The notes under the pieces were generated by a model, which saw only the letters and a program-made list of their open reading frames with translations, was not told the origin of the DNA and searched no databases. This document shows positions 8,008 through 46,267 of a DNA stretch of 64,000 nucleotides, piece by piece. Both the position numbers and the translations under genes were made by a program. Origin of the DNA: an uncultured delta proteobacterium (GTDB lineage Bacteria; Desulfobacterota; Binatia; UBA9968); the NCBI GenBank assembly GCA_963745835.1, contig CAVUZH010000005.1, positions 96,001-160,000 of the forward strand, in the 5' to 3' direction. Position 1 is the first letter of the stretch; each line of letters starts with the position of its first letter.

Positions 8008-8023
8008 TGGCATCTCGCTTGCT
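8008..8023 (+). promoter_or_regulatory. Sigma54 -24/-12 promoter candidate upstream of hemerythrin gene
   Basis: TGGCAT-CTCGC-TTGCT matches TGGCAC-N5-TTGCW; 140 nt upstream of ATG 8163. Confidence 0.65.
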
Positions 8024-8162
8024 GCGCTAGACTTTCATCACGATGCGCTGGACGCCCTGAAAAATTTACCGCCTCAGCAAAACAAACTGCTTTTAACGGA
8101 ACGCATTTAGCCGTCAATTGGGAAACGTACTAACTGTGCTCGAGCGAGTTCAAGGAGGTTTG

Positions 8163-8597
8163 ATGGATGCATTAGAACTTTTGAAACAGGATCACGCGAG
8201 AGTAAAAAAATTATTCGACAAAGCTGAAAGCGCTGATGACCGGGAGCAGAAACGCATTTTCAGTCAAATCAAAAGTGAGTTGGAGATGCATGCCCATCTC
8301 GAAGAGAACATTTTCTATCCTGCCATGCAGAGATACGATGAACTAAAAGAGATGATCGTCGAGTCGCTCAAAGAACACAATAATATGAAAACGCTCCTCC
8401 AGAAGATGGCTACTCTCTCCGATCCTCAAGATTTCGAAGACAAGCTTGAGGAGCTGATCGATAACGTCGAACATCACGCCGAAGATGAAGAAGAGGCAAA
8501 GATGTTCCCGAAGGTCCGTGAGCTTGTCAGTATCAACGAACTGCAGAAACTAGGATCTCAACTCCAGGCAGCCAAAGGCCAGCGTAAAGCGAGCTGA
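8163..8597 (+). CDS. Hemerythrin/HHE cation-binding domain protein
   Basis: AAGGAGG RBS; MDALELLKQDH, HAHLEENIFYPA, EH, HHAEDEE..MFP motifs. Confidence 0.9.
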   Translation: MDALELLKQDHARVKKLFDKAESADDREQKRIFSQIKSELEMHAHLEENIFYPAMQRYDELKEMIVESLKEHNNMKTLLQKMATLSDPQDFEDKLEELIDNVEHHAEDEEEAKMFPKVRELVSINELQKLGSQLQAAKGQRKAS

Positions 8598-8661
8598 GCA
8601 GTCTGAGGGCAACAGATTGATTCCGGCGCGGGGATGTGAGTTGTAATAGACTGTGATGACT

Positions 8662-10023
8662 TTAACCGCGGGCGGGAAATTCGATTTTGAAAGTCGTTCC
8701 GGCTCCCTCTTCGCTTTCGACAGTGATGGCGCCGTTATGATCGTCGAGAATAGTTTTTACGATAAACAATCCGAGGCCAGTGCCCTCGGTATTGGCCGAG
8801 CCTTCGAGACGCTTGAACTCCCGAAACAGATTAGGCAACTCTCGTTTAGGAATTCCGATGCCGCTATCCTTGATGCTCAGCGAAATCTTGCCTGCGATCA
8901 TCCGCGAAGTTAGAGCGATGGCGCCTCCCGGCGGCGTGTATTTGATGGCGTTGTCGATCAGATTCCAAAGCACCCTCTCTAACTGATTCTGATCGCCATG
9001 ACAGGGCTTTAGATCATCCGCAAGTTCCACTCGAACATCCAGATCTTTCTTACGGAGGGCGACGGTTTGCTGCCGTATGACGTCTCTCAGTATGGGATTG
9101 ATCTCGACCGCAGTCTTACTGGCTTCCGCCTTGGGTGTCACTAGTTCAGACACGTTCAAAAAGCCGATGACCAGGTTTACTATACGATCGATGTTTTCGC
9201 GGATGCATTTGAGCGACAGAGTTTGCTCAGCCGGGTTGGGTTGTCCGCCGAAGGAGCCGGCGAGCAATTCGGCATGGCCGAGAATGACCGAAAGCGGCGC
9301 TTTAACATCATGCGCAAGGGCACACACCACCTGACGTTTGAATTCTTCGGTTTGTTTTAGCTGTTCGATCCGTCGCTTATCTCGTTTCACCTCATTGGTG
9401 AGATGGCCGTACAGAACCGATATGCCGAGCATGAAAGGAACTCGCAGTAGCAGGTCCGAGTTGATAGCCGAGATATCGATTTGCTGCGAGCTAATGAAGA
9501 TCAGAAAGACGGCACTTAACAATGTGCAACCAACCACAATATGGATCAGATTTTCCCCGGTTGCGGCGATGAACACGCAAAAGAAAAAGAGCGCCAGCAA
9601 GTCCCACGGCGCGCTCTGAGTCAATCCGATGGCAGCAAGAATGAGGATCGAGTCAAACGTTAGAAGTTTCGCCTCAATGTTGTTCCCTGCAAAGATCTTG
9701 AGCGGCAGTCGCTGCAGTGCCGCGGCTGAGATAATGCAAAGAACTATTAGCGCCAAGGGCAGCGGAGCGCCGAGACTCCACGCTTGACTGGATAAGATTA
9801 AATAGGATGTACCGACCGCAACAAACCACTGGAGTGCGATAAGCGCATTGCGGTTTTCTGCCGGCGTAGTCTTTGTGTCCTTGCAGGTCAAATCATTCCT
9901 GAAAAGACCTATGATCTGATCGGCAAGGTCGGCTAGTGAGTCTCTTCGTGCGATGTCAGACATTTTACTATTTTGCGAGCCCAATCCGAGTCTCAGCCAA
10001 GTCAGTTTGAGCATTTCAACCAT
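8662..10023 (-). CDS. Membrane-bound sensor histidine kinase (start uncertain)
   Basis: Several N-terminal TM helices; H-box AHDVKAPL, N-box NLIDNAIKY, G1 DSGIG, G2 GTGLGL. Confidence 0.9.
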   Translation of the reverse strand: MVEMLKLTWLRLGLGSQNSKMSDIARRDSLADLADQIIGLFRNDLTCKDTKTTPAENRNALIALQWFVAVGTSYLILSSQAWSLGAPLPLALIVLCIISAAALQRLPLKIFAGNNIEAKLLTFDSILILAAIGLTQSAPWDLLALFFFCVFIAATGENLIHIVVGCTLLSAVFLIFISSQQIDISAINSDLLLRVPFMLGISVLYGHLTNEVKRDKRRIEQLKQTEEFKRQVVCALAHDVKAPLSVILGHAELLAGSFGGQPNPAEQTLSLKCIRENIDRIVNLVIGFLNVSELVTPKAEASKTAVEINPILRDVIRQQTVALRKKDLDVRVELADDLKPCHGDQNQLERVLWNLIDNAIKYTPPGGAIALTSRMIAGKISLSIKDSGIGIPKRELPNLFREFKRLEGSANTEGTGLGLFIVKTILDDHNGAITVESEEGAGTTFKIEFPARG

Positions 10024-10098
10024 TGAGCCACCAGGAATCTGCGGTCGGCGCTGGCTTCAAAGCGGGTTAGATCAATGATGGATCGTCGATACCTGGCG

Positions 10099-10114
10099 AG
10101 CAACCGATGTGCCA
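10099..10114 (-). promoter_or_regulatory. Sigma54 -24/-12 promoter candidate upstream of histidine kinase
   Basis: Minus strand reads TGGCAC-ATCGG-TTGCT, a perfect consensus match. Confidence 0.75.
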
Positions 10115-12289: not shown

Positions 12290-12948
12290 GATGTCCTCCG
12301 TAGTTGTTGAACGGACAGCGAACCGTGGTGTTTAATCAACCTGCGCGCCCGTTGCTGCGAGGATGATATACTTGAGGATTATCGCAAGCCGCATACTAGG
12401 AACACCCTGCACGGGCGGCGGTGTAGACGTGAACCATCGCGAACATCCATGCGGGCAACATGTCGGTGCGCAAACAAAAAAAATCGAGCAATAGTTCGCC
12501 TCATCGACGGTCACGCTTAGTAAAGTCTAGATCTAAGTTTCGATATCACACGGACATCTCGAGGAGTTGCTTCATCTGAGCCCGCGGGCCTGTAACAAAA
12601 ACCGGACTTGGCTTAATCCCAATTGCTTCAGAGAAGAGATAGAAAGTCACGACCAAGTTCACCTTCATGGAGATGCTCATTCTTGATTTCTTCGCGTTCG
12701 CTGCACCGCGACGCGCGAATCTGCCGGACGCGATGATCAAGCTGAATGCAGGTACGCACTTGCGGCAAAATAAACTGTTCGGGAAAGGACCGGGAGAGTG
12801 CAACGGCTACCGGATTTGAGGTGGCAATCTAAAATGAAGTTAGCGGCCGCAGCTCACCGTCGATTCGAACCTGGACTTTTGCGCCTTGCGAGCTGGATTT
12901 CGAAGAAGCGTAACCGTGATACAGAAAATGAAGGCGAGAGCATCAAAG

Positions 12949-14357: not shown

Positions 14358-14795
14358 GAGGGAATCTCCTTCGAAGGAGATTCGATTCCTATCGGGGGTG
14401 CATTCCCTTTTTAACTCGCCGGCGCGGGAAGTCAAGTTAGTTTTCACTGAGTACATGCTCTACACCATTTCAAATGAGCTGCGCTTTCTGACGTGCAGCC
14501 TCGAGTGCAGCAATCTGGATATCAAACCTTAAGGATGGCGGGGCGTTGATGAACTCGATCCGGATTTATTGAATTCTGAAATTCAGAAAATGCGTACAGT
14601 TCGGTCTGATGTATGAGGATCAAGCACACAAGTCAGTCAGGATAGGTTGACTCGCGTGACTCGTTTCAGTTTTCTGCGGCTCCGATCGTCCCATATGTAG
14701 AACAAGTAGGCGCTCTTCCATAGCTGAGTAGCGTCAGTTGGGCTTCCACCAATAAATTTTTACAGTGAATCAGAAGATCTACGTTTCGATCCTGC

Positions 14796-14811
14796 TGGTA
14801 TGCGCATTGCA
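14796..14811 (+). promoter_or_regulatory. Sigma54 -24/-12 promoter candidate upstream of treZ
   Basis: TGGTAT-GCGCA-TTGCA, GG-N10-GC spacing preserved. Confidence 0.6.
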
Positions 14812-14954: not shown

Positions 14955-16848
14955 ATGAAAGCGGCAACAATCAGTCCAGGAGTTTACAACCGGCGATTTC
15001 CTGTTGGAGCCGAACCGGCGACGGATGGAGTTTACTTTCGCGTCTGGGCGCCGCAAGCGAAACGAGTCGAGCTCTTGATCGGCGCCGCCGACTCCTTGCA
15101 GCCGGAGGAACTAGAGCCCGAAGCGCAGGGGTACTTTTCCGGTTTTGCGCCCGGGTGCGCTGGAGGCGATCTCTACCGTTTTCGCATAGATGGACGAGAG
15201 CAATTGCTGCCGGATCCAGCGTCCCGATTTCAGCCCGAAGGTCCGTTTGGCCCGTCGATGATCGTAGATGCGTCTCAATTTGAATGGCACGATGCTCAGT
15301 GGAACGGCGTAGGCCTCGCCAATCAGGTTATCTATGAGATGCACATCGGCACTTTTACTCTCGAAGGCACCTGGCAAGCTGCCAGCCGGCAGTTGCGCGA
15401 ATTAAGCATGCTCGGCGTGACCGTGCTCGAGATGATGCCGATCAATGATTTCTGCGGCAGCTTTGGATGGGGCTATGACGGCGTGAATTTTTTCGCACCC
15501 ACACGGCTGTATGGCGCACCCGACGATTTGCGCGGGTTTATCGATGAAGCGCATCGCGCCGGTCTCGCGGTCATCCTGGACGTGGTTTACAATCACGCTG
15601 GCCCAATGGGAAACTTCTTGAAAGATTTCTCGAAAGATTACTTTACCAACCGCTATGAAAACGAATGGGGTGAAGCGATCAACTTCGATGGTTCTAACTC
15701 GGGTCCGGTGCGGGAGTTCTTTCTCACTAATGCGCGTTACTGGATTTCCGAATTTCACTTTGACGGCCTGCGCTTAGATGCCACACAGGCGCTGTTCGAT
15801 GGGTCTGAGAAACACATCCTTGCCGAGCTGGTCGAAACCGCGCGCCAGGCAGCGGCGCCAAGATCAATCATCGTCATCGGCGAAAACGAACCTCAAAACA
15901 GCAAGCTCATGCGTCCTGCTGAGGAGCAGGGTTACGGCCTCGACGGGTTGTGGAACGATGACTTTCATCATACCGCGATGGTGGCTTTGACCGGGCACAA
16001 TGAAGCATATTACGCAGATTACCTCGGTAATCCGCAGGAGTTCATTTCCGCTGCCAAACACGGTTACCTCTATCAGGGACAGTACTACCGCTGGCAAGAG
16101 AAGCGCCGCGGCACCTCAACGATGGGGATCAAGCCCGCGGCTTTTGTCAACTATCTGCAGAATCACGATCAAATTGCTAATAGCGGTCGGGGCTGGCGGC
16201 TCCAACATATGACGGACCCTGCGCTCTACCGGGCAATTACTGCCTTGTTTCTTCTCTGTCCGCAAACGCCGATGCTGTTTCAAGGACAGGAGTTCGCCGC
16301 TTCGACTCCGTTTGCTTATTTCGCCGATCATCAAGGCGAGCTCGGCGAAAAAGTAAAACAAGGCCGGAGGGAATTCTTGCATCAGTTTCCCAGCCTCGCG
16401 ACAGAGGCGATCCAAGCGCAACTTCCCGATCCGACGGATCCGCAGGTTTTTGCCTCGTGCAAGCTCGATTTTTCGGAACGAAGTCGCCATCACGAGACCT
16501 ATGCGTTGCATCAGGATCTTCTTCGTCTGCGCCGCGCGGATGCTGCCTTTAATTCGCAGCAGGCTCGAGCAGTAGACGGAGCCGTGCTCGGCGATCGCGC
16601 GTTGCGTATTGAGATTCTTTGCGCCGGATGGCAAAGATCGCCTGCTGCTGATCAATCTGGGAATCGATACGATGCTCGGGCCGGTTCCGGAGCCGCTACT
16701 CGCCCCTCTCCCTGGCACTACCTGGCAGGTTCTTTGGTCGAGTGAGAACCCGCGCTACGGCGGCACCGGCGCACTGCCGGTGGAAAATGAAAGCGGCTGG
16801 TTGATAATTGGCAAGAGCGCCGTTGTCCTCGCGGATTGTTCTGAATGA
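14955..16848 (+). CDS. treZ: Malto-oligosyltrehalose trehalohydrolase (GH13); single frameshift near 16603
   Basis: FRVWAP, PDPASRFQPEG, YEMHIGTFT, WGYDG, DVVYNH, GLRLDATQ, WNDDFHH, QNHDQ; C-terminus continues in ORF 16609-16848 (LRFF...RLLLINLG). Confidence 0.92.
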
Positions 16849-18875
16849 ATCCTCTTCTTGTGCGCACGCTCACCGATATCCCGAAGATAAAGCTCGATCC
16901 ACCGGAGCTTACTCATCACCCGGAATGGCTCGTGACCAATGGCCTTGGCGGTTATGCCTCGGGAACGGTATCCGGGGCGATGACGCGCCGCTATCATGGT
17001 CTGTTGATCGCGGCGTTTCCGGCGCCCTTGGGAAGAATGATCCTGTTAAACGATCTCGATGAAGAGGTTCACCTTCCCAATAATCGCGTTGTCCATCTAA
17101 GTACCCGCTATGGTGATTCCGCCGAGCCCACTGCAGAGTTGCTTGAGTTCCGCCTCGAAATGGGTCTGCCGGTTTGGCGTTATCAGATAGATAATAATTG
17201 GATACTCGAAAAGTGGCTTCATCTGCCCTATCGGCAGAACACGGTTTTTATCACCTACAAAACGCTTGATTGCTCCGATGACATCCGGCTCAAGCTGCGG
17301 CCGTTGATCCAGTTTCGCGGTCACAGCGATGATGTCGACGCGCAACCCAAAGATCCCTATGTGCTGAGTGTGTTGGAAGATCAATATCAGATCTCGACGG
17401 GAAACCTGCCGCCCCTGCGTCTGCTGATCTACGCTAAAAGCGAGTTCGTCATCGAAAGAAAAAAAATTGAAAAGGTACGCTACCTGCGCGAAGAACAGCG
17501 CGGCTATCATGTGATCGGCGATCTTTGGACTCCCGGCACCTTTGTTCTCGATGTAGTCGCCAGCGAAGAGAGTACCCTGGTGGCTTCGACGGAGTCGTGG
17601 GAAGTCATGCGCGCCATGCGACCCGCCGATGCGCTGGCAGCTGAACGTGATCGCCGCGCGCGCCTGATTGCATTAGCCGATAGCAGAGCTCAGTCAGGAT
17701 TCGCCGCCGAGTTAGTGCTGGCCGCGGATCAATTCATTACCGTACCGACGGGCCGCCTCGCCGATCAGACTCGTACCCAGGCTGCGGGCGACGAAATGCG
17801 CACAGTTATCGCCGGTTATCATTGGTTCACCGACTGGGGACGCGACACCATGATCAGTCTGGAGGGCCTGACGCTTGTCACCCGGCGTTTTCTCGAAGCC
17901 GGGTGGATATTGCGCAATTTCGCCAAGAGCATCCGACACGGATTGATTCCCAATCTATTTCCGGAGGGAAGCCGCGAGGGACTCTACCATACGGCGGATG
18001 CCACTCTATGGTTCTTTCATGCGATTGAGCGCTATGTTCAAGCCACCGGCGACCGCTGGACTCTTAGGTTCCTCCTCCCCAAACTGATCGAGATCTTCGA
18101 GGCGCACATCCGTGGAACTTTGTTCGGCATCAGCGTCGATCCCGACGACGCGCTGTTGCGCCAGGGCGAAGAAGGATACCAACTGACGTGGATGGACGCT
18201 AAAGTTGGCGATTGGGTTGTCACTCCGCGCCGCGGCAAGGCCGTTGAAATCGATGCACTCTGGTACAACGCCCTGCGCCTTCTGCAAAAATGGGTCGCGG
18301 AAGAAAACGATCAGAAGAAGGCGCGCGACATAGGCGCTTGGGCCGACAAAGCTAAAGACTCGTTCAACAAAAAATTTTGGTGCGCGGCGGAGGGTTATCT
18401 TTACGACGTCATCGATAGCCCTCAAGGCGACGATGCCGCCTGCCGGCCGAATCAATTGCTGGCCATCTCCCTGGATCATCCAATTCTCGAGTCAGGTCGC
18501 TGGGAGCCGGTCCTGAGAACGGTCCAACAGCGTCTTCTGACTCCATTCGGATTGCGCTCGCTTGCCGCAAACCATCCGGATTACAAGTCAAGATATTTTG
18601 GCGACATTCGCGCGCGCGATGCCGCTTATCATCAAGGGACCGTTTGGGCCTGGTTGATCGGCCCGTTAATCGATGCGTGGCTCAAAGTTTATCCCGAAGA
18701 TCGCACCGGCGCGCACGAGCTTTTACGTGGACTTATTCCGCACATGAATGAGCACGGTATCGGTTCGATCAGCGAGGTCTTCGATGCGGAACAACCGTGG
18801 ACTCCCCACGGCTGTATAGCCCAGGCGTGGAGCGTTGCCGAGGTGTTGCGCTGCTGGGTCAAGACGGCGCCGTGA
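16845..18875 (+). CDS. Glycogen debranching enzyme (amylo-alpha-1,6-glucosidase)
   Basis: EWLVTNGLGGYASGT, TRRYHGLL, IAGYHWFTDWGRDTMI, TWMDAK, YHQGTVWAW, QAWSVAE; ATGA overlap with treZ. Confidence 0.93.
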   Translation: MNPLLVRTLTDIPKIKLDPPELTHHPEWLVTNGLGGYASGTVSGAMTRRYHGLLIAAFPAPLGRMILLNDLDEEVHLPNNRVVHLSTRYGDSAEPTAELLEFRLEMGLPVWRYQIDNNWILEKWLHLPYRQNTVFITYKTLDCSDDIRLKLRPLIQFRGHSDDVDAQPKDPYVLSVLEDQYQISTGNLPPLRLLIYAKSEFVIERKKIEKVRYLREEQRGYHVIGDLWTPGTFVLDVVASEESTLVASTESWEVMRAMRPADALAAERDRRARLIALADSRAQSGFAAELVLAADQFITVPTGRLADQTRTQAAGDEMRTVIAGYHWFTDWGRDTMISLEGLTLVTRRFLEAGWILRNFAKSIRHGLIPNLFPEGSREGLYHTADATLWFFHAIERYVQATGDRWTLRFLLPKLIEIFEAHIRGTLFGISVDPDDALLRQGEEGYQLTWMDAKVGDWVVTPRRGKAVEIDALWYNALRLLQKWVAEENDQKKARDIGAWADKAKDSFNKKFWCAAEGYLYDVIDSPQGDDAACRPNQLLAISLDHPILESGRWEPVLRTVQQRLLTPFGLRSLAANHPDYKSRYFGDIRARDAAYHQGTVWAWLIGPLIDAWLKVYPEDRTGAHELLRGLIPHMNEHGIGSISEVFDAEQPWTPHGCIAQAWSVAEVLRCWVKTAP

Positions 18876-25597: not shown

Positions 25598-25610
25598 AAG
25601 GGGGGAGCCA

Positions 25611-35095: not shown

Positions 35096-36355
35096 CTATC
35101 GCGCCGCAGGTTCAGCGGCCGACCTGAGCGATCCATAGTACGCAGTCACGTCGCGCATCTGCTGCGGCGTTAGCCGGCCGGCAACCCGATGCATAATGTG
35201 AGCGTAAGGCGTGCCGCCGCGGCTTTGTTTGTTGAACAGTTCGAGCTGCAGAGCGAGGTATTCTGAATGTTGCCCGGCGAGCTCGGGGTAAATTGGGTTT
35301 CGCCGAAGACGGTTGGGACCATGACAGGCGCTGCATGCGGGAACCCGCCGGCTCGGGATGCCGCGCATGGCGATCTCTCTGCCGCGTTCAATAGCCGGGG
35401 CGATTTCCTCCGACACCGGCGCTGGAGGCGGCGCCGGTAAGTTGCCATAGTACTGCGCGATCTCGCGCATGTCTTTCGCTGTCAAGCTGGCGGCAAGCGG
35501 CTGCATAATTCCGCTGTGACGCTCGCCGCGTGCGAATGCCAGAAGCGACGCAAAGAGGTAATCTGTTCGCTGCCCCGCAAGGATCGGAAACACGCTCAAG
35601 TCCCGGGTGCGATTATCGACAATGTGACAGCGCGCGCAGTTATCAGTGATGATGCGAGGCGCTTGTTTCGACTCGGTCAGATCGTCAATAGTTGCGGCTG
35701 GCGCCTTCAAGCTGCGCGCCACCTTCAGATACTCTTGCGCGGTGAGTTTGGGAATTTTCAGCAGAAACGCGACCACGGCCCAGACTTCGTCATCGCGCTG
35801 TTGCGCCGGCCATGCCGGCATCCCGGTAAATTTGACGCCATGCTTGACGATATAAAAGAGCTCCTCCGGCTGCCATTTGGGAATCTCCGGCGGCAGGTGC
35901 GGCGGGTGCGGCGTCATATGACCTGCGATGACCGGTTGGGGCAGATGCGGCCCGCCATGGCACGGCCGGCAGCCAAATTCATAATGAGTCGCGCCTTTAG
36001 CGACGAGAGCGGCGTCATCAAGTTTTGGAGCGTTCATGCCGAGAGAATGGGTGATAACGGAACGGCGCATGGTGAAATTCAGCAACCATGCGGTGATCGG
36101 CCAGTGCCCGGAGCTGGCCTTGATCGGCATGATTCCTGATGCGGCGAACAAGAAGCCGCCCAAGGCGGCGACCACGGCGAATGCAATAGCTTTAAAAACC
36201 CAATGCTTTGCCTTATGACCGGGTCGATCTTTCAGCGCCTCCGTACTTCCGGCGCTCATCGAGGGCGCGGCGTCTCTGTGTAAGAATTGAACCAGCGTGA
36301 TTACCGCCGCGGCAACGAACGCGCAGATCAAGACGGTGTTCCTGAATAACTGCAT
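35096..36355 (-). CDS. Membrane-anchored tri-heme c-type cytochrome (c4/c553-like domains)
   Basis: Heme motifs CRPCH, CARCH, CSACH; TGMPAW and PxLAGQ motifs; TAATG overlap with ctaG. Confidence 0.88.
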   Translation of the reverse strand: MQLFRNTVLICAFVAAAVITLVQFLHRDAAPSMSAGSTEALKDRPGHKAKHWVFKAIAFAVVAALGGFLFAASGIMPIKASSGHWPITAWLLNFTMRRSVITHSLGMNAPKLDDAALVAKGATHYEFGCRPCHGGPHLPQPVIAGHMTPHPPHLPPEIPKWQPEELFYIVKHGVKFTGMPAWPAQQRDDEVWAVVAFLLKIPKLTAQEYLKVARSLKAPAATIDDLTESKQAPRIITDNCARCHIVDNRTRDLSVFPILAGQRTDYLFASLLAFARGERHSGIMQPLAASLTAKDMREIAQYYGNLPAPPPAPVSEEIAPAIERGREIAMRGIPSRRVPACSACHGPNRLRRNPIYPELAGQHSEYLALQLELFNKQSRGGTPYAHIMHRVAGRLTPQQMRDVTAYYGSLRSAAEPAAR

Positions 36356-36987
36356 TAAGAAGGCTCCACCGGCGCGAGCATAGGTTCGCGCAGCAAACGA
36401 ATGGTCAGCCACAGACCGCCGAGCAGATACGAAAGGCCGCCGACAAGCAGCATGATCGCGCCGCCGAGATGTTGGTCATCGATAGCCGTAAGCCCGGAGA
36501 ATTCTCCGGCATGGGCATAAAGCGGACGTGGGCTGAGCGCCAGCAGCGCGCCCAGCAAGGTCATGTGCATGGCGGTGAGCAGGAGAGCGACCAGTCCGGC
36601 GGCGCTGCGGTTGCTCCGGCGCGCGGAGTTGCCGCCGAATGCCGATAGCCAGACAAAAACACCGGCGACGAAAAACATTCCTTGCTCGATGATCAACACC
36701 ACCGTGTGGTGACGCGCCGCATGGTGCAACGCCGGCGCATGCCAAGCCCAGACCACAACAAGCTCGAGAATAGATGCGGGGATCGGGGCGAACAGCCGTG
36801 GAGCCTGCCGGGTTGCATCGAAGCGACCGCCGGCGATACCCAGTGCAAGCACGGGCGCGGCCACGGCGACCACGCCCATGTGCATCAGCATGTGCGCAAA
36901 GAACGCCTGGCGCGCGAGCTGCGGCAGCGGCCCCAGCCAGACGGCAGCCAGGATCAACAATCCGCCGGCTATGACACCGCGGCGCAT
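36355..36987 (-). CDS. ctaG: Caa3-type cytochrome c oxidase assembly factor (Caa3_CtaG family)
   Basis: AHMLMHM, WAWHAPALH, HMTLLGALL, DQHLGG; within oxidase operon. Confidence 0.82.
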   Translation of the reverse strand: MRRGVIAGGLLILAAVWLGPLPQLARQAFFAHMLMHMGVVAVAAPVLALGIAGGRFDATRQAPRLFAPIPASILELVVVWAWHAPALHHAARHHTVVLIIEQGMFFVAGVFVWLSAFGGNSARRSNRSAAGLVALLLTAMHMTLLGALLALSPRPLYAHAGEFSGLTAIDDQHLGGAIMLLVGGLSYLLGGLWLTIRLLREPMLAPVEPS

Positions 36988-37373
36988 CAGTAACAGCTCC
37001 GGACGAATACCGCGACCAGTGCCGCGTAGACGACAGCCACCGCGCTCAGCGCCGACAGCAGCAGGGTGGCAAAACCCAGGAAACGGTGCCGGTCCTCGGG
37101 CGTGTCATCATCGTGCGGCAGGTTAGCCTGGCCGAAGCTATGCCTATGATGGCCATTCCAACCAATGACCCCAATGGCAGCGAGTGCCAGCGCGGTGTAG
37201 ACGCCAATGGCGATGCGCGCGCTGTCCAGCGGACCGCCGAGCCCGACAACCTTGGCGCACCACACCGCGGCGGTGCCGTAGCACAGCAGGAAATGCGCCG
37301 CCCAAATCACCGGCGAGGCGGTGAGCAGCCACAGGCTTTCTTTTGCTTCAGGCAGCTCTTTTCGAGTGGTCAT
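36987..37373 (-). CDS. Small membrane protein of the oxidase operon
   Basis: Three TM helices; SPVIWAAHFLLCY; overlaps ctaG start. Confidence 0.8.
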   Translation of the reverse strand: MTTRKELPEAKESLWLLTASPVIWAAHFLLCYGTAAVWCAKVVGLGGPLDSARIAIGVYTALALAAIGVIGWNGHHRHSFGQANLPHDDDTPEDRHRFLGFATLLLSALSAVAVVYAALVAVFVRSCY

Positions 37374-37390
37374 TATGATCTACAGAGCAA

Positions 37391-37650
37391 CAGTTCAAAT
37401 CGTTCAATCGCATTTGCTCTGTTCAATCGCTCTGCTCCGTTCAAGCCGTGCTCCACGTATTCCGATTGTTCCAGCCAACCGAGGGCAACGTTTAGCTTTC
37501 CTGCGACGAATAGCTGGATGCTTGGCCTCTTGCCTTTACGAGTGAACTCCGTTGTCCTGAGTTTGCGCTAGCTTTGTGGTGCTTAACTCTCCGCGCGATC
37601 TTCTCTGCAACGATTTGAACGACTGGAACTGCTGGAACTGTTTGAACGCA
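37391..37650. repeat. GTTCAA/TTGAAC-arm palindromic element (copy A)
   Basis: Left arm of GTTCAA units (37391-37444), ~160-nt core, right arm of TTGAAC/TGGAAC units (~37607-37650). Confidence 0.7.
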
Positions 37651-37656
37651 TTTACT

Positions 37657-40191
37657 TTAGGTTGCCAGCGGAAAACCGGCGATTACAGCGATCGTGATCG
37701 CAGCGGTCAGCGCGGTGAAATGCCAGTAAAGCGCCACGTTGCTGATGTCGCTGTCATAGCGGGCCGTCATTCGTCCGGCGATCCGGCGCGCCAAGCAGTA
37801 CAGTTGCATAATCACGCCTACCAAAACTTGAGTCGCGGTCCAGATCACAAGTATCCACACGGTCGCCGGATAGACATGACTCGTCGGATCGAGCCCGGTG
37901 AACCACGGCGCTGCGATCAGCGCGGCTGCGCCGGCTATGGCCAAGCCAACGGCGATTAACACGCTGCCGTAAAAGCCAACCGCGCTATCATTTCTATTCC
38001 AGCGACGCGCCAGCAACGTGAGCAGCCAGGCTCCCAGCAAAAGGACCGCCGCCAGTCCCGGCCAGAACACGCCGGGCCCCGGCGCCGGCTTCGGCGGAAA
38101 GTCGGTGCGCACCGTCCAGAAGAAAAAATAGCCGAACACGAGCGACATGAATGCGCTTAGCATCGCCAGCATCGTGATGAACATCGCCCACCATCCGACC
38201 GATTCGCGCCCCGACATATAGAGCGGCAAGGTTAGGCCCAGACCGACATCCTTTTTTTCTTTTTCAGGAATGAGCGCTGTCCCGGTCCATAACCAGTAAA
38301 TGATGACGCAAAGCGCCAGCGCCAGGCTAAGCATCGCCGGCCACCACCAGTGATAGGTGCCGAAGATGAAAAAGCCGCCGGTCGTCAGAGCGGCCCAAAG
38401 AGTGATGAATGATGAACCGGGAAGCCTGGCGCATTGCTGGGGCTGCGCGTCGATGACCGAAGTGATGATGGTTTCCCGTCTCCCTTCTTCGGCATCCGGC
38501 AAATAGAAGCGGCCTTGATCGATGTCGCGCACAAAATTCGCTTGATCCCAGAGCGGGTAGCGGCTGTCAATCTCCGGAATGGAGCGAATACCCCAGGACT
38601 TGCCGGGCATCTCTTGAGCCCACTCAATCGTGCCGGCCTGCCACGGATTGCGCGCCGCGTAAGGCTGCTTCTTCTTTGGCCGCACGATGTCCCAGAAAAC
38701 GACGCCAAGACCGGCGGCAAGAATGAAAGCGCCGATCGTAGTCGTCAGGTTGAGCGCGTCAAATCCGAGACCGGCCGGATAGGTGAAAACACGCCGTGGC
38801 ATGCCGCGCAAGCCGGTTATATGCATCGGCAGAAAGGCGATGTTGAAGCCGGTGAACGCCAGCCAGAAGGCGATCTTGCCGAGTTTGTCCGAGAGCATTT
38901 TGCCGTTGATCAGTGGGAAGAAATAATAACAACCAGCGAGAATCGGGAAGAGCGCGCCGCCGATCAGGACGTAGTGGAAGTGGGCGACGACGAAAAAGGT
39001 GTCGTGCGCCTGAAAATCAAACGGCGCCACCGCAACCATCACGCCGGTCAATCCGCCGAGCACGAAAATCACCAGGCTGCCGAAGGCGTAAAGCATCGGT
39101 ACCGAACGGACCACACGCCCCGCCGCCAGGGTCGCGATGAAGCAGAAAATCTGCACGCCGGTGGGCAGCGCTACCGCCTGAGAAGCGGCGGCGAACAAGC
39201 CGATCGAGATTCCCGGAAGCCCGGTCGTGAACATGTGATGCACCCACAGTCCAAAGCTTAGAAAACCCGTGCCCACCGCCGCCAGCACAATCCAGCTGTA
39301 GCCGATGATCGGCCTGCCCGCGAAGGTCGGCACGATCATCGCAATCAGCGCGACCGAGGGCAGAAAGATGATGTAGACCTCCGGGTGACCGAAGAGCCAG
39401 AAGAGATGCTGCCACAGCAGCGGGTCGCCGCCGCCCGCGGGATTAAAAAATGGCCAATGAAACGCTCGCTCGACTTCCAAAAGCATGCTGCCGGCAATAA
39501 GCGGCGGAAACGCGAAGACGATCATCGCCGCCGCCACCAGGACGTACCAGACATAGAGCGGGACGAGGTTGATGCGCATCCCCGGAGGCCGGGTTTTGAG
39601 CGAGCCAACCACCATCTCGACGGCGGCGGCAATGGCGGCAATTTCGATGAACGAAAATCCCAACAGCCAGATATCCGCGCCGATGTCCGATTGATAAGTC
39701 GAAGTAAGCGGCGGGTACATGAACCAGCCGCCGCGCGGCGCGGCGTTGAAAAAGATCGAACCGCACAAAAATATCCCGCCCAATAAGAAGCACCAGAAGC
39801 CGAAGGCCGACAAACGCGGAAAAGGCAGGTCGCGCGCGCCCAGCATCTGCGGCAGGAACAATACGGCTATCGCCTCGAAGATAGGTATCGCAAAAAGAAA
39901 CATCATCACCGAACCGTGAACGGTGAACGCCTGGTTATAAAGCTCGGCGGAGAGAAAGTCGTTATTGGGCACCGCTAATTGAATGCGCATGAGGAGCGCC
40001 AGCACACCGCCAAAAAGCAGAAACAGCAAGGTCATGCCGGTATACCAAAGCCCGACGTCCGAATTGTTGACCGAGGACCAGTAGCGAAAACCTGACGGTG
40101 TTTCCCACGTTTTCTCCAGCCGCTGCGCCTGCGCCCGCTGGATCTCGTCGGCCGGCGCCACAGCGAGAGGTTCGATGTCGGATTGGTTCAT
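37657..40191 (-). CDS. ctaD: Cytochrome c oxidase subunit I fused to subunit III (A1-type)
   Basis: HGSVMMF, GWFMYPPL, FGHPEVY, WVHH, HFHY, GMPRR; C-terminal subunit III-like part ending ALYWHF. Confidence 0.94.
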   Translation of the reverse strand: MNQSDIEPLAVAPADEIQRAQAQRLEKTWETPSGFRYWSSVNNSDVGLWYTGMTLLFLLFGGVLALLMRIQLAVPNNDFLSAELYNQAFTVHGSVMMFLFAIPIFEAIAVLFLPQMLGARDLPFPRLSAFGFWCFLLGGIFLCGSIFFNAAPRGGWFMYPPLTSTYQSDIGADIWLLGFSFIEIAAIAAAVEMVVGSLKTRPPGMRINLVPLYVWYVLVAAAMIVFAFPPLIAGSMLLEVERAFHWPFFNPAGGGDPLLWQHLFWLFGHPEVYIIFLPSVALIAMIVPTFAGRPIIGYSWIVLAAVGTGFLSFGLWVHHMFTTGLPGISIGLFAAASQAVALPTGVQIFCFIATLAAGRVVRSVPMLYAFGSLVIFVLGGLTGVMVAVAPFDFQAHDTFFVVAHFHYVLIGGALFPILAGCYYFFPLINGKMLSDKLGKIAFWLAFTGFNIAFLPMHITGLRGMPRRVFTYPAGLGFDALNLTTTIGAFILAAGLGVVFWDIVRPKKKQPYAARNPWQAGTIEWAQEMPGKSWGIRSIPEIDSRYPLWDQANFVRDIDQGRFYLPDAEEGRRETIITSVIDAQPQQCARLPGSSFITLWAALTTGGFFIFGTYHWWWPAMLSLALALCVIIYWLWTGTALIPEKEKKDVGLGLTLPLYMSGRESVGWWAMFITMLAMLSAFMSLVFGYFFFWTVRTDFPPKPAPGPGVFWPGLAAVLLLGAWLLTLLARRWNRNDSAVGFYGSVLIAVGLAIAGAAALIAAPWFTGLDPTSHVYPATVWILVIWTATQVLVGVIMQLYCLARRIAGRMTARYDSDISNVALYWHFTALTAAITIAVIAGFPLAT

Positions 40192-40203
40192 GACATTAAA
40201 TTA

Positions 40204-40316
40204 CGTTGAAGCCGTTCAACTGCGTTGCTCAGTTCAATCGCTATGCTCCGTTCAAATCGCCGGAATCCCTAAGACGCTTTGAATGCGTTGAATGATTTGA
40301 TCGATTTGAACAAAAC
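40204..40316. repeat. GTTCAA/TTGAAC-arm palindromic element (copy B)
   Basis: GTTCAATCGCTATGCTCCGTTCAA at 40232-40255 differs by 1 nt from 37421-37444; TTGAA(T/C) units on the right. Confidence 0.7.
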
Positions 40317-40320
40317 GTTT

Positions 40321-41298
40321 TCACTCGAGTCCTTTCAAGTACACCGCCATGGCTTGCAGTTCTTCTTTCGGCAGCATGCCGAATTGCGGCATGAGCACTC
40401 CCGGTTTGGTGTGTTCGGTGCGGGCGATCCACTGAACCAAAGCATCGACATCGTTCGGCAAAGTGCCGGCGCCGATGCTCAGCCGCCCGCCCACATGGGT
40501 AAGATCGGGTCCTACCACTCCGTTGGCCGGTGTGCCGCGGACCATGTGGCAAGCGCCGCAGCCATTGGCGAGAAATAGCTCTTCACCTCGCGCCGCCAGC
40601 GGCGCGTTGGGTGATTGCGCCGGCGCCGATTGGTGCGCCAGCCAACGGGCGAAGTCCTCCTTCTCGTGGACGACAACGTCGAAGCTCATCAACGCATGCG
40701 AAGTGCCGCAGTATTCGGCGCACGCGCCGCGAAAAACACCGGTTTTGGTCGGCGTCAAAGCAAGCCGTGTCAACCGTCCGGGGATCATGTCGATTTTGCC
40801 GCCTAGCGAGGGAATCCAAAAGGAGTGAATGACGTCCGGGCTTTCCAGATGAAACTCCACCGGCTCTCCGACCGGCAGGCGGATCTCGTTGGCCAATATT
40901 ACCGGTTCGCCGGCCGATAATTGATAGCGTACCCGCCACCACCACTGCTCTCCGGCCACGGCAATTTTCAGGCTGCCTTCCGGCGCCGGCGCCAACAACG
41001 CTGGTAGCGGAGCTAAACCATAGACAAGCAGGGCGGTCAACGCGATCGTCGGAACAATCGCGCCGCCGCCGATGATCAATAAATTGGACCGTCGCTGGTT
41101 ATGCGTTTCGGGGGAGGCGCCGACTGCCCATATCGCCAAGGCGATTACCGCGATCCAGATCACAGTGCCAGCGATCGTCATCCACCAGAAGATTTCGGCA
41201 ATGCGCTGAGCGGCGGGGCCTGCCGGATCGAGCGTCGATTGCGGACCGGCGCACCCCGCGAGCAACAGCATGCATATCAGGACGATACGCCGAGCCAT
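40321..41298 (-). CDS. ctaC: Cytochrome c oxidase subunit II with C-terminal cytochrome c (caa3-type)
   Basis: Lipobox LAGC; QWWW; DVIHSFW; CuA motif CAEYCGTSHALM; heme CGACH. Confidence 0.94.
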   Translation of the reverse strand: MARRIVLICMLLLAGCAGPQSTLDPAGPAAQRIAEIFWWMTIAGTVIWIAVIALAIWAVGASPETHNQRRSNLLIIGGGAIVPTIALTALLVYGLAPLPALLAPAPEGSLKIAVAGEQWWWRVRYQLSAGEPVILANEIRLPVGEPVEFHLESPDVIHSFWIPSLGGKIDMIPGRLTRLALTPTKTGVFRGACAEYCGTSHALMSFDVVVHEKEDFARWLAHQSAPAQSPNAPLAARGEELFLANGCGACHMVRGTPANGVVGPDLTHVGGRLSIGAGTLPNDVDALVQWIARTEHTKPGVLMPQFGMLPKEELQAMAVYLKGLE

Positions 41299-41551
41299 GT
41301 CATTAGCGCCGTGGTAGCTGATGCGAGTGGGAAGAAGGTCGATGGCGGGATGCCTTTCGATTACGCTTGAGCGCCGATCCGAGCTGCGATTACGAAATGG
41401 ATTTTTGTATCAAAAGCGAGAAACGGTTCCAACGTAAAATCCAGCTTTGGGACGATCATTTTAGAACGTTGCTTTAAGGTCTCAGGATCGCTCTTAGTAT
41501 CGCGTGTGCCGGATAACTTTCCGTGGCGAGTACATATCGCAACGTGCATCG

Positions 41552-41567
41552 AGCAAGACATGTTCCA
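41552..41567 (-). promoter_or_regulatory. Sigma54 -24/-12 promoter candidate for the oxidase operon
   Basis: Minus strand TGGAAC-ATGTC-TTGCT. Confidence 0.6.
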
Positions 41568-41681: not shown

Positions 41682-42534
41682 GTGGGTGTTCAGCGCAGCC
41701 AATCAATATCGCCTGAAAGAATTGCCGCCCAGTCCTTCTTCATCGGACTGGCGCGTGCCTTTGGCGGCGCCCTGATTTTTTCTTTACCGATTCTGATGAC
41801 AATGGAAATGTGGTGGCTGGGGTTTTCCATCGATGAGTTCAGGCTCGCCTTGTTGCTGTTGTTGAGCATCCCTCTATTGATCGGCCTCTCTCATTACATG
41901 GGTTTCGAGGACACCTTCGGTTTCAAAGATGACGCGCTTGATGCCTTTGTCGCTCTAGCGGTGGGCTTCGTCACCGGCGCAGTGACGCTCAGCCTTTTCT
42001 CGGTCATCGGATTTGACATATCGGCTTCCGAGTTCATTGGAAAAGTTTCTATCCAAGCGGTTCCCGGCAGCATCGGTGCGATGTTCGCGCAGAGCGAGCT
42101 GGGCGGCAAAGAAGGAAAGAAGGAAGAGAAAAGACGTCACGCGGGTTATGGCGGTGAAATATTTATCATGGCTGCGGGCGCTCTATTCCTTGCTTTCAAT
42201 GTTGCCCCCACCGAGGAGATGATTTTGATCGCGCACCAAATGAGCATCGGGCACTCGATCGCACTCGTCGTAGTCTCACTGCTGATCATGCATGCGTTTG
42301 TTTATGCCCTGGAATTTCAGGGAACGGCGTTGCTACCGCCTGGAACTCCGTTCTGGAGCGTCTTTCTTCGCTTTACCATCGTCGGCTACGCCGTTGCGCT
42401 GATGATGAGTCTCTACATGCTTTGGACTTTCGGACGCACCGAAGGTTTGGCTTTCCACCAAACGATATCGATTCTAGATCGTGCTCGGGTTTCCGGCCGC
42501 TGTTGGCGCGGCCGCGGCAAGGCTGATACTCTAG
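41682..42534 (+). CDS. TIGR02587-family integral membrane protein; frameshift near 42477
   Basis: RAFGGALIFSLP..MTMEMWWLG, FNVAPTEE; alternate frame ends IVLGFPAAVGAAAARLIL-TAG 42532-42534. Confidence 0.85.
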
Positions 42535-42546
42535 CAAGGATCAACA

Positions 42547-43020
42547 ATGGCAGCGCGCACCGATCACACAGCTAAGGGGAGACAAGGTTCCAAGATGCCG
42601 GCGCTTGCTCAGGCGCGATCCGCTTCTCAGGAGCAGCAAGAGAAGGAGGCCATTCCGATCTGGGAATGGATTGTCGCCGGAGTTGGTTTGGTGTTGGTGG
42701 CCGGCGTGATCGGCTTTTTGATCTATGAAGCTTTCAGCCGCGATCGGGTGCCGCCCGATGTAAAGCTCTCAGTGGATTCGGTGGTTGAGACCCGAAACGG
42801 CTATCTAGTTAAAATCATCATAATTAATGAAGGCGGCATGACGGCAGAGGGCGTCGACATTGAAGGGGAGCTCAGGAGAGGCACAGAGCCGGTCGAACGA
42901 AGCCGGACAACGATCGATTATCTGCCGCCGCGCTCAGAGAAGAAGGCCGGTCTATTCTTTACGCGAGATCCTCGGCAGCTCGACCTTCAGGTGCGTTCTT
43001 TGGGGTATGAAGAACCTTGA
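42547..43020 (+). CDS. TIGR02588-family protein
   Basis: EW..GLVLV TM, NEGGMTAEGV, IDYLP, GLFFTRDP, GYEEP; follows TIGR02587 partner. Confidence 0.85.
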   Translation: MAARTDHTAKGRQGSKMPALAQARSASQEQQEKEAIPIWEWIVAGVGLVLVAGVIGFLIYEAFSRDRVPPDVKLSVDSVVETRNGYLVKIIIINEGGMTAEGVDIEGELRRGTEPVERSRTTIDYLPPRSEKKAGLFFTRDPRQLDLQVRSLGYEEP

Positions 43021-44317: not shown

Positions 44318-44357
44318 CTAAGTAGCGAAAACTGCCGCGGACGAATTTGGAGAAATC

Positions 44358-45527
44358 ATGAAACCAGTTTTGCTAATTAGCCTACTTGCTTGTTTCTTGT
44401 TCGCTTGCGAAAAAAAGGAAGCTAAAGCCCCGACGCCGCCAGAGGCCACGCCGCCGGCAGTTGAGGAAAAGAAAACGGTCTCTGCTGAACGACCGCCGCC
44501 TGCCGCCGGACCGGGATCGTACGCCGATGTGGTCGAGCGCGCCGGTCCCGCCGTTGTCACAATTCGCGCCGCCAAACGCGCGCGCGCGCCGCAACAGCAC
44601 CCGTTTTTTAACGATCCGCGATTTCGTGATTTTTTCGGCGGCATTTTTCCTGGAGCCGCCGACACCCCTCCGAGAATCCAGATGGGGTTGGGTTCGGGAG
44701 TCATCGTCTCACCGGACGGCACCATCCTGACAAACCATCACGTCGTCGACGGCGCTCAGGAAATTCAGGTCGAGCTCACCAACCACCGCTTATTTAGTGC
44801 GAAAGTTGTCGGCTCCGATCCGCCGAGTGATCTCGCCGTTTTGAAAGTCGATGGAAAAGATCTGGCTGTGTTGCCCTTAGCTGATTCGGATCGCGTGCGG
44901 GTCGGCGATGTCGCTCTCGCCATCGGCAATCCGCTGGGCGTAGGTCAAACTGTGACGGCGGGGATTATCAGCGCCAAAGGACGCTCCACTGGTCTGAGCG
45001 ACGGCAGTTTCGAAGATTTCTTGCAAACCGATGCGCCGATCAACCAGGGTAATTCGGGTGGGGCACTGATCAACACCCGGGGCGAGTTGGTCGGCATCAA
45101 TTCGCAAATCTTGTCACCCTCAGGCGGCAACATCGGTATCGGCTTTGCCATTCCGTCAAATATGGCCCGCAACGTCTCGGAGCAGTTGATCAAGACCGGA
45201 AAGGTTCGCCGCGGTCAGCTCGGTGTCGCGATTGAGCCGGTGACCCCGGAGTTAGCCTCTAAGCTCGGTATGAAGGAAGTTCGGGGCGTGATGGTCGGTG
45301 CCGTGAGTCCTAACAGCCCAGCGGCACGGGCGGGAATTCGCGAAGGCGACGTCATCTTAGCGTTTAACGGAACGCCGGTGACAGATGGAAATACTCTACG
45401 AAATCGGGTTGCGAGCACGCCACCGGGAAATGCGGTAAAACTCACGACATCGCGGGAGGGTCGCGAGCAAGAGGTGGAGGTCACCCTAGGCGAGTATCAG
45501 CCGGCCACGGCACAACGCCGCAGGTAG
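44358..45527 (+). CDS. Lipoprotein HtrA-family serine protease with one PDZ domain
   Basis: Lipobox LFAC; GSGVI, TNHHV, DLAV, QTDAPINQGNSGG; single PDZ. Confidence 0.92.
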   Translation: MKPVLLISLLACFLFACEKKEAKAPTPPEATPPAVEEKKTVSAERPPPAAGPGSYADVVERAGPAVVTIRAAKRARAPQQHPFFNDPRFRDFFGGIFPGAADTPPRIQMGLGSGVIVSPDGTILTNHHVVDGAQEIQVELTNHRLFSAKVVGSDPPSDLAVLKVDGKDLAVLPLADSDRVRVGDVALAIGNPLGVGQTVTAGIISAKGRSTGLSDGSFEDFLQTDAPINQGNSGGALINTRGELVGINSQILSPSGGNIGIGFAIPSNMARNVSEQLIKTGKVRRGQLGVAIEPVTPELASKLGMKEVRGVMVGAVSPNSPAARAGIREGDVILAFNGTPVTDGNTLRNRVASTPPGNAVKLTTSREGREQEVEVTLGEYQPATAQRRR

Positions 45528-45680
45528 TTGTTTCTGCACGCGTTGAAAAAAGTTTGTGCGGCGCGCAGCCCGGATTGTGCCGCCAAGATTTGAGTACGGA
45601 TGTTTGAAGTGGTCTCTGATAACGAGTTGAGTTGTGCTTGTTGTCGGCTGGATTCGAAGGCCAGAAGTCGTCTTACCGAT

Positions 45681-46049
45681 TCAAGCGTTAAGAAGAGCCT
45701 TCAATTGAGAAGTGTCCACCGGCTTGCGAAGGAAATGGTGGAATTCGGATCCGGTTTGTTTTTGCCGGGCGGTCTCTTCTTCGAACCCGGTAAGGGCGAT
45801 AAACTTCGTCGTCTGCAGTTCCTTAAATTGTTTGAGTCGATTCAGTAGCTCATAACCGCCGATATCCGGAAGTCCAATATCGAGGATGATGATGTCAGGC
45901 GAAAACTCACCGGCGACTTCTATGGCTGTGCGACCATTGAAAGCCGTTCGAACCTTGTAGCCGGACATCTCCAGCAAGATCGCCGTCGACTTACAGGCCA
46001 CCTGTTGATCGTCGACTAAGAGGACCTTACGGATGGCTGTGTCTTTCAT
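45681..46049 (-). CDS. Stand-alone response-regulator receiver protein
   Basis: VLLVDD, LDIGLP, ALTG, KP motifs. Confidence 0.88.
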   Translation of the reverse strand: MKDTAIRKVLLVDDQQVACKSTAILLEMSGYKVRTAFNGRTAIEVAGEFSPDIIILDIGLPDIGGYELLNRLKQFKELQTTKFIALTGFEEETARQKQTGSEFHHFLRKPVDTSQLKALLNA

Positions 46050-46251
46050 ACATTTGGCCTTCCCTACCCGTGCTGTTCATCACGGATTCGAATGGTTCCT
46101 GAAACAACCTTCCTGTCGAATGTAATTTGTGTCCTGATTTTCGGATTGCAAGTCCCATTCGTAGCTTTTTTTAAACAGTTATACTACGCGCTCACAACGC
46201 TATCAGGTGAATTTGGCCTTAACCATGCGCTCTGAAAAAAAAGGAATTCAG

Positions 46252-46267
46252 TGGCATACGCCTTGCT
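46252..46267 (+). promoter_or_regulatory. Sigma54 -24/-12 promoter candidate upstream of SRPBCC gene
   Basis: TGGCAT-ACGCC-TTGCT. Confidence 0.72.

Follow-up and report, generated by a model that had tools for sequence, protein, structure and literature searches.

The Island and Its Promoters

The subject of this study is a 64,000-nucleotide stretch of DNA (the window; part of contig CAVUZH010000005.1, assembly GCA_963745835.1, from an uncultured soil bacterium of the Binatia), and in particular an island of general-stress and desiccation genes within it that had been proposed, from the letters alone, to be wired to sigma-54. Profile comparisons upheld the gene names originally given: hemerythrin, HisKA-HATPase kinase, TreZ, debranching enzyme, CBS, Ku, LigD, BON, CoxAB, TIGR02587/88, SRPBCC and a stand-alone receiver. 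The closest named matches of one island gene were Candidatus Binatia metagenome-assembled genomes at 84–87% identity. Throughout, the host genome is coded G000, its relatives G001, G002 and so on, and individual loci L plus a number.

With genes called using a custom codon model, and a sigma-54 matrix trained only on upstream regions outside the window, all eight -24/-12 motifs proposed in the initial annotation were found in place, and seven of them retained an intact GG-N10-GC core, lay in intergenic DNA, were oriented towards the genes named for them and scored 13.2–21.5 bits. Intergenic sites of at least 13 bits numbered seven in 14,257 intergenic bases, as against a mean of 0.30 and a maximum of three in 300 shuffles. 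Such sites preceded 7 of the 18 island units, none of the 12 flanking units, as had been noticed for the flanking catabolic genes, and 139 of the 3307 units in the rest of the genome; the 11 island units devoid of a site of their own included the GH15 gene, both htrA genes and the SDR gene. A naive consensus search of the whole window was marginal (nine matches where 4.8 were expected, with 6 of 100 shuffles reaching nine), so that the signal rests on position plus orientation. Judged in this way, the seven sites are real -24/-12 sequences. The eighth copy, before the DksA-like/BON gene, is present as a sequence but doubtful as a promoter, its GG being broken and its score low. The -24 element of this lineage, as captured by the genome-wide matrix, is mostly TGGCAT (T in 69%) rather than the textbook TGGCAC.

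Table 1. Promoter sites, enhancers and genes of the island, with the candidate activator (window positions unless a contig is given).
Feature	Position	Strand	Remarks
Predicted sigma-54 site, hemerythrin gene	8008..8023	+	18.1 bits; predicted +1 ~8034; kept in G001, G004
Predicted sigma-54 site, histidine kinase gene	10099..10114	-	20.7 bits; predicted +1 ~10088
Degenerate site before DksA-like/BON gene	12383..12398	-	8.2 bits; TAG instead of TGG; doubtful
Predicted sigma-54 site, treZ and debranching enzyme	14796..14811	+	13.2 bits; predicted +1 ~14822
Predicted sigma-54 site, CBS-ku-ligD-BON-pyruvate oxidase run	19170..19185	+	18.3 bits; predicted +1 ~19196
Predicted sigma-54 site (TGGAAC variant), oxidase unit	41552..41567	-	15.2 bits; predicted +1 ~41541
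Predicted sigma-54 site, TIGR02587/TIGR02588	41616..41631	+	20.3 bits; predicted +1 ~41642
Predicted sigma-54 site, YgaP-SRPBCC gene	46252..46267	+	21.5 bits; predicted +1 ~46278
Candidate distal enhancer, hemerythrin	7757..7776		11.6 bits; 241 bp upstream of the 8008 site; at 229-235 bp in the close relatives G001, G004
treZ enhancer	14686..14705		10.4 bits, top 1% of controls; 100 bp upstream of promoter; 10.0-11.4 bits in G002, G004, G007
Tandem enhancer pair, CBS-ku	19061-19080 and 19093-19112		8.3 and 4.4 bits; 32 bp apart
TIGR02587 enhancer	41405..41424		14.4 bits; 201 bp upstream of promoter, inside oxidase-unit leader
Weak SRPBCC enhancer	46129-46148		kept in 3 of 4 genus orthologues
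Hemerythrin (HHE) protein	8163..8597	+	Pfam PF01814
Orphan membrane histidine kinase	8662..10023	-	PF00512, PF02518
DksA-like/BON gene	11477-12289	-	Pfam gives only BON
TreZ and glycogen debranching enzyme	14955..18875	+	TIGR02402 over cut-off; PF06202
CBS protein, Ku, LigD, BON, pyruvate-oxidase-like thiamine pyrophosphate enzyme, rhodanese-CBS	19220..26345	+	TIGR02772, TIGR02776 over cut-off
Alternative cytochrome c oxidase unit: coxB, coxA, small membrane protein, CtaG, cytochrome c	35096..41271	-	
TIGR02587 and TIGR02588 membrane proteins	41682..43020	+	both over NCBIfam cut-off
Stand-alone receiver protein	45681..46049	-	PF00072
YgaP-SRPBCC gene	46339-47118	+	
EBP-A, NtrC-family activator	G000:C22:374965-376317	-	450 aa; receiver, AAA+ with GAFTGA, Fis-type helix-turn-helix (HTH_8)

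Genome-Wide Deployment and Conservation of the Sites

A training-free spacer test placed these promoters in a wider setting: TGGYAY-Nk-TTGC occurred 146 times in the genome at k = 5, as against 37–74 times at 15 other spacings. Upstream regions of at least 13 bits numbered 130 of 4584, compared with 38 in antisense and 13 in shuffles, a count that is partly circular in that the matrix was trained on those same regions. Stress-type first genes behind the 123 sites outside the window (Pfam assignments) comprised three CsbD proteins, a long catalase, a ferritin-like protein, two hemerythrins, DUF4142 and DUF2382, together with BON, LigD polymerase, GlgX, SRPBCC, holin-X and two YihY genes. Sigma-54 is not dedicated to stress in this organism, since nitrogen, envelope and secretion genes use it too, the targets including PII (glnK)/AmtB, ABC binding proteins, secretion and cell-wall genes. 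When CsbD, Ku, BON, hemerythrin, GH13 and PRC were taken as markers (two markers without a gene call being dropped, and units delimited by a 200-bp operon rule), a site was present at 7 of the 27 marker units outside the window, whereas for all other units the figure was 139 of 3307 (odds ratio 8, p 1e-4). The link between stress markers and sigma-54 is strong but far from complete.

Comparison with relatives indicated that individual sites have been retained. The CBS-ku site was kept in all five genus relatives with changed spacer sequences, the SRPBCC site in all four genus orthologues (63–91% identity), the oxidase site in five of five relatives, and the hemerythrin site in both available loci, each from a close relative. 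The treZ site was found in three of six loci with upstream DNA (G004, G007 and G019; in G010, G020 and G022 it was not directly upstream), and also in G024. The oxidase site overlaps an EcfG-like GGAAC-N17-CGTT, the CGTT of which was kept in only two of the five relatives as against five of five for the -12 TTGC.

Eighty named TIGR02587 loci served as a natural control. A sigma-54 site was present in 7 of 11 Binatia or deltaproteobacterial (Binatia-like) loci and in none of 31 alphaproteobacterial loci, and the EcfG motif in none of the former and 15 of the latter, a distribution that suggests a promoter swap on this gene, with sigma-54 in the one group and EcfG in the other. Variant elements were seen elsewhere: YGGAAY-N5-TTGC lies 13–133 nt upstream of TIGR02587 in Gemmatimonadota (L142, L162, L187, L199), possibly a sigma-54 variant like the oxidase site of the window, and TGGCAY-N5-CTGC lies 22–36 nt upstream in two Verrucomicrobiota and one Bacteroidota (L173, L175, L184), unlike the csbD loci of those two phyla, which mostly have no site. 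Upstream of csbD a sigma-54 site was found in 20 of 29 Binatia genomes from seven families (spacer controls 0, 1, 0 and 2; antisense 0), and in other phyla in 4 of 15 Gemmatimonadota, 3 of 10 Acidobacteriota, none of 11 Verrucomicrobiota and 1 of 25 Bacteroidota loci. One acidobacterial locus, from a genome marked as unpublished, was excluded, and none of the conclusions depends on it. One locus labelled uncultured Enterobacteriaceae (L165; 55% GC, six sigma-54 sites) encodes proteins up to 77% identical to those of the host genome, and its label looks wrong.

Sigma Factors and Activators of the Host Genome

The 7.28 Mb host genome contains a single rpoN gene (489 aa, E 5e-62 in a profile search) and 26 loci for enhancer-binding activators, one of them duplicated (approximately 25 distinct). 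None of the genome-wide activator matches falls in the window, in agreement with what had been read there. Two equal-length regions, each an activator plus neighbour with matching sites (G000:C12:1150-4316 and C19:541354-544520), probably represent an assembly duplicate or contamination.

Sigma-70 profiles matched 19 proteins, namely one RpoD, one RpoH-like protein, two RpoD-like paralogues and otherwise ECF-type factors. No protein exceeded the family cut-off for RpoS (the RpoD-like paralogues scored 254 and 235 against 378.7) or for SigB (best SigBFG score 133 against 234). PhyR was absent from the genome, two weak PF22029 matches being plain ECF factors with no receiver, and none of the 13 ECF-type proteins scanned, out of 15 matches, passed any named cut-off. 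DUF892 had no match in G000.

The SigB promoter motif is GTTT-N12/14-GGGWA. It was not enriched in the host genome (3–5 sense against 4–5 antisense copies at these spacings), nor was the EcfG motif GGAAC-N16/17-CGTT at its expected spacings; on this count, EcfG- and SigB-type promoters were rejected. The two RpoD-like paralogues, of 522 aa (G000:C22:379943-381511) and 509 aa (C15:142005-143534), are both below all named cut-offs. Upstream of the former lie a 21.9-bit sigma-54 site and a pair of the enhancers described below, an arrangement kept in G006; upstream of the latter lie an imperfect site and a 13.3-bit enhancer. A lineage-wide cascade from sigma-54 to such a paralogue was rejected, a site of at least 11 bits being present in none of 12 homologue loci from other genera.

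A Shared Enhancer and Its Candidate Activator

The search for a common upstream activator site proved fruitful. A dyad count upstream of 129 promoters drew attention to TGT-N12-ACA words, and expectation maximisation from four seeds converged on TGTCYCR-N4-YGRGACA, with a log-likelihood of 130 as against 18–23 on three shuffles. This enhancer reached at least 9 bits at 35 of 122 held-out promoters compared with 2.9% of 2042 control regions, pairs of it showed a spacing peak at 31–32 bp, and it was found before 13 of 17 stress-marker promoters as against 0 of 32 other sigma-54 promoters. A genome-wide count of the enhancer alone was tried and gave no signal.

In the window, strong enhancers accompany three of the seven promoters (two of them distally) and weak ones a further three, including that of the kinase gene. 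The tandem pair of the CBS-ku promoter recurs at 66–68 and 97–100 bp in all five genus relatives, and 31-bp pairs precede ku units in G010 and G028. The TIGR02587 enhancer, found at 186–245 bp with 10.7–15.0 bits in five of five relatives, could serve both of the divergent promoters, of the oxidase unit and of TIGR02587. A different element, TCTACA-(A/C)-CTT-ACAA-like, is common to the DNA upstream of csbD sigma-54 sites in one Binatia family (f11; L214, L215, L216) and is a candidate enhancer of another activator.

The best activator candidate for the enhancer, on the comparisons given here, is a protein designated EBP-A, which would bind it. The receiver, as read from the sequence, has an acidic pocket (D9-D10), phospho-acceptor D53, T81 and K103. 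The EBP-A gene has a sigma-54 site of its own with a tandem enhancer, and heads a glgE-treS-glgB run; it scores below all named cut-offs (AtoC 447 of 714, NtrC 409 of 559, ZraR 386 of 760), and no kinase gene adjoins it in G000, G006 or G028. When 28 candidates were scored per genome, EBP-A was 96–100% identical in six of seven genus relatives. A sigma-54 site with an enhancer of at least 10 bits was present at its own promoter in 10 of 13 orthologues from four genera, and none of 15 sister-clade activator loci, although provided with sigma-54 sites, had such an enhancer. In G018 and G024 EBP-A lies among stress genes with sites, its neighbours in G024 being csbD, treZ, debrancher, CBS and ku genes, most of them with sites.

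Covariation between the recognition helix and the enhancer was also recorded. Near activator genes with the helix SRSSLYRK, base 2 of the enhancer was G in 45 cases and T in 7; near those with SLS[ST]LYRK it was G in 3 and T in 21. Whole-genome samples gave 46 G and 15 T in G018, and 4 G and 23 T in G015. Such a pattern may reflect an arginine–guanine contact. In a quick tree the Leu helix occupied two separate clades, with Arg forms outside both.

Other binders were considered and set aside. Activator family B had no consistent enhancer in its flanks, 5 of 13 sites bearing one, of which four belong to one duplicated cassette. An activator acting from solution through lack of a DNA-binding domain was rejected, the two short activator frames having their missing ends in adjacent open reading frames; the shared enhancer also argues against it. 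A metagenome scan with EBP-A returned mostly generic activators, only 4 of 78 loci among the matches listed exceeding 60% identity. A sister activator with no receiver in its called frame (G000:C14:387000-396000, L073) is flanked by promoters with the T-variant enhancer, which precede PaaA-like and hemerythrin genes and possibly constitute a low-oxygen regulon.

Possible Inputs

The suggestion that the orphan kinase and the stand-alone receiver of the window act as inputs found no support. The kinase site was kept in only three of five genus orthologues and none of 13 homologue loci from other genera, and in G002 and G007 the kinase gene has different neighbours. No sigma-54 site points towards the receiver gene (best score -2.9). 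The kinase appears to be a sigma-54 target rather than a supported input. A stressosome operon elsewhere in the genome (G000:C25:176062-190153, L365), in which a sigma-54 site and an enhancer pair precede genes for an NtrC-family activator, RsbR/S/T/X-like proteins and two hybrid kinases, is a candidate input or feedback module. This RsbRST stressosome is present although no SigB exceeded its cut-off.

Interpretation and Alternatives

The promoters and their conservation, the shared enhancer with its link to stress markers, the enhancer at the EBP-A promoter and the covariation of helix and enhancer were all computed from the genomes. Together with the presence of rpoN and its activators and the lack of any RpoS, SigB or EcfG above its family cut-off, they support the proposal that this lineage may run its general stress or dormancy response through sigma-54; every computational check suggested for this proposal was passed. 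It is considered probable that the island forms part of a regulon for general stress and dormancy that extends over the whole genome and is run by the single sigma-54 with EBP-A. Sigma-54 polymerase would wait in closed form on the -24/-12 sites; a kinase would phosphorylate the receiver of EBP-A, which would then bind low-affinity TGTCYCR-N4-YGRGACA palindromes, frequently paired at a distance of three helical turns, and open the promoters using ATP. By driving its own promoter at the head of the glgE-treS-glgB run, EBP-A would exert positive feedback. This account presumes that EBP-A binds, that the sites are used, that an inducing signal exists, and that the genes have the stress role of their homologues. 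If a general stress regulon is defined functionally, as an output gene set under one control element, then the 13 of 17 marker promoters constitute such a set, with classes drawn post hoc.

A number of observations weigh against this assignment to EBP-A and sigma-54. The host genome has a contamination of 9.33% at a completeness of 97.1%. The RNA data (24 runs, four of them aligned, available as assembled contigs only, word shares at most 0.24) could not place transcription starts: coverage begins at 19100 and 19139, upstream of the predicted CBS start, and may be read-through or DNA, so that no start is derivable. Under the 200-bp operon rule, which splits long runs such as that from EBP-A to glgE (207-bp gap), sites are missing from 20 of the 27 marker units that lie outside the window. 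The enhancer is degenerate, its perfect palindrome never occurs, and it shows no genome-wide enrichment away from sigma-54 sites; among the window promoters, that of treZ alone has one of at least 9 bits within 140 bp, and the oxidase promoter has none upstream. The 17 and 32 gene classes were drawn after the data had been seen. In a class-wide sample no enhancer of at least 9 bits was found at csbD (0 of 25), from which it follows that other families need another activator. An initial test of EBP-A failed, enhancer-like sites numbering 7 of 27 in G015, which has only the sister clade and no EBP-A, and 10 of 29 in G018, which has it (p 0.57), and the G/T refinement was devised thereafter; since the Leu helix occurs in two clades and related genomes are not independent, the covariation amounts to about two independent helix contrasts. 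Finally, part of the response could fall to the two RpoD-like paralogues and to at least 13 ECF factors.

In a different arrangement, the promoters would be genuine but belong to a large mixed sigmulon with several activators and no single stress master switch, as in Geobacter and Desulfovibrio. The approximately 130 high-scoring regions do include glnK/amtB, ABC binding, secretion and cell-wall genes, some 25 activators are available to serve them, enhancer-bearing promoters flank a second activator family beside the stressosome and Flp pilins, and for four of the seven promoters in the window the enhancers are no more than weak or distal; large mixed sigmulons are also on record for D. vulgaris and G. 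sulfurreducens (PMC4641369). That arrangement is nevertheless held to be unlikely, if the most serious competitor, in that the enhancer separates stress markers from other promoters, the enhancers beside the second family reduce largely to one duplicated cassette, and self-regulation of EBP-A is kept in four genera. A low-oxygen or energy-limitation programme of NmpR/DosR type would account for the hemerythrin, alternative oxidase and pyruvate oxidase of the island, and has parallels in the sister-clade activators, which lie behind a PAS-kinase homologue near USP- and CBS-like genes, and in Myxococcus xanthus NmpR, which according to the available text runs an oxygen-utilisation regulon with hemerythrin via sigma-54 (PMC11841059). 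The breadth of the targets (three CsbD, long catalase, Ku/LigD, TreZ/GlgX, BON, DUF4142 and DUF2382), the dissimilarity of the NmpR site GCGCA-N5-TGCGC to the present enhancer, and the association of the T-variant enhancer with sister clades rather than EBP-A make such a programme decidedly improbable.

Less probable still, and regarded as very unlikely, is a Borrelia-like scheme in which an RpoD-like paralogue or ECF factor is the true stress sigma, switched on by sigma-54, and the island sites are secondary. The sites and enhancers before the two paralogues, the lack of a direct site at most marker units and the overlap of the oxidase site with GGAAC-N17-CGTT are compatible with it; the empty homologue loci of other genera, the absence of enrichment of EcfG- and SigB-like motifs at their spacings and the poorer retention of CGTT than of the -12 TTGC tell against it. 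Chance matching, to which the marginal naive search might point, is refuted for the seven sites by the intergenic excess, by conservation despite spacer divergence and by spacer-specific enrichment, leaving it next to no credence overall, and is plausible for the degenerate 12398 copy.

The EBP-A and sigma-54 regulon may be put in broader terms, for which the chances are judged slightly better than even. Binatia would then have an additional architecture for the general stress response of bacteria, with no stress sigma factor and with a self-amplifying sigma-54 activator that fires dozens of pre-loaded promoters. A single residue of the recognition helix (Arg or Leu), together with the G or T of the enhancer, would set this regulon apart from a sister one that probably serves low oxygen. 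The promoter part would be class-wide, and would recur at some csbD loci of the Acidobacteriota (3 of 10) and the Gemmatimonadota (4 of 15).

It is a largely open matter how the abundant bacteria of soil that have never been cultured, many of which have no RpoS, SigB or EcfG, enter a stress-resistant state. The present analysis offers a circuit with definite parts, testable in vitro or in Escherichia coli without culturing: its promoters are named, its enhancer has a sequence, and both a candidate for the master activator and a rule linking helix to base are proposed. The transcripts of EBP-A and its targets could mark the stress state in soil metatranscriptomes.

Relation to Known Systems

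Trehalose/glycogen and BON genes are established members of general stress regulons, among them those of RpoS and SigB. The proposed regulon resembles the EcfG/PhyR, RpoS and SigB systems in its output, the accessible part of a report on Sphingopyxis ascribing csbD, catalases and ku-ligD to EcfG control (PMC7083833), and TIGR02587 carrying an EcfG motif in Alphaproteobacteria. It differs in that no such sigma factor exceeds its cut-off here, in that the -24/-12 promoters need an ATP-driven activator, and in that control would be by phosphorylation rather than by anti-sigma release or proteolysis. NtrC at glnAp2 is the classic sigma-54 regulon of the NtrC family. The present system shares with such regulons a receiver-AAA+-helix-turn-helix activator with GAFTGA, tandem palindromic upstream enhancers and self-regulation; unlike them, it has an activator below named cut-offs with no adjacent kinase, and dozens of dispersed stress targets.

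In M. xanthus, the confirmed targets of Nla28 consist for the most part of regulators, pilA and defence loci; they have 8-bp direct repeats, and most of their promoters are intragenic (PMC9765219). NmpR has seven promoters (PMC11841059). The csbD/ku/treZ set is described for neither in the available parts of these papers. For the D. vulgaris sigmulon, of about a hundred promoters and many activators, the accessible text labels DVU3305 general stress response (PMC4641369) and classes five operons as stress response, as against one enhancer marking at least 13 classic stress-marker promoters here. The Rrp2-RpoN-RpoS cascade of Borrelia, so far as its source was available (PMC4014564), is similar in placing a sigma-54 site before an alternative sigma-70-family gene; here, however, the stress genes have sigma-54 sites of their own, and a site of the cascade kind was found only in G000 and G006.

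Parts of the wiring are thus known, but the wiring as a whole was not described in the literature searched, a body of searchable papers outside which most subscription journals fall. Binatia, CsbD and general stress all go unmentioned in the available portion of a survey from 2025 that covers the sigma-54 regulons of 33 classes (PMC12316311), and three terms had no match in 11, possibly incomplete, supplements. Neither sigma nor RpoN occurs in the Binatota genome paper.

Further Features of the Island Genes

The DksA-like/BON gene had been described as decayed. A cysteine-rich, DksA-like zinc-finger stretch can indeed be read by eye in another frame; decay itself is doubtful, as an assembly frameshift may be responsible. 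The window TreZ has 596 aa, compared with open frames of 652–706 aa in six relatives, and a frameshift at the 3' end of the gene is probable. Indels at 10607, 10869 and near 22960 are seen in RNA contigs from related strains, and further apparent frameshifts lie in 11477-12289 and 14955-16745; long-read assembly errors are a likelier cause of these than decay.

The run from CBS to rhodanese-CBS is presumably co-transcribed, as gene order suggests. Its rhodanese-CBS gene (25611-26345, +) has an in-frame TGA at 25815, TGA being present in all five matching homologue loci, and tRNA-Sec is present in the genome; a selenoprotein is the probable product of this gene within the stress run. A small hydrophobic open reading frame (32504-32611, -) has no site in the window, and its G018 homologue has a consensus sigma-54 site approximately 90 nt upstream.

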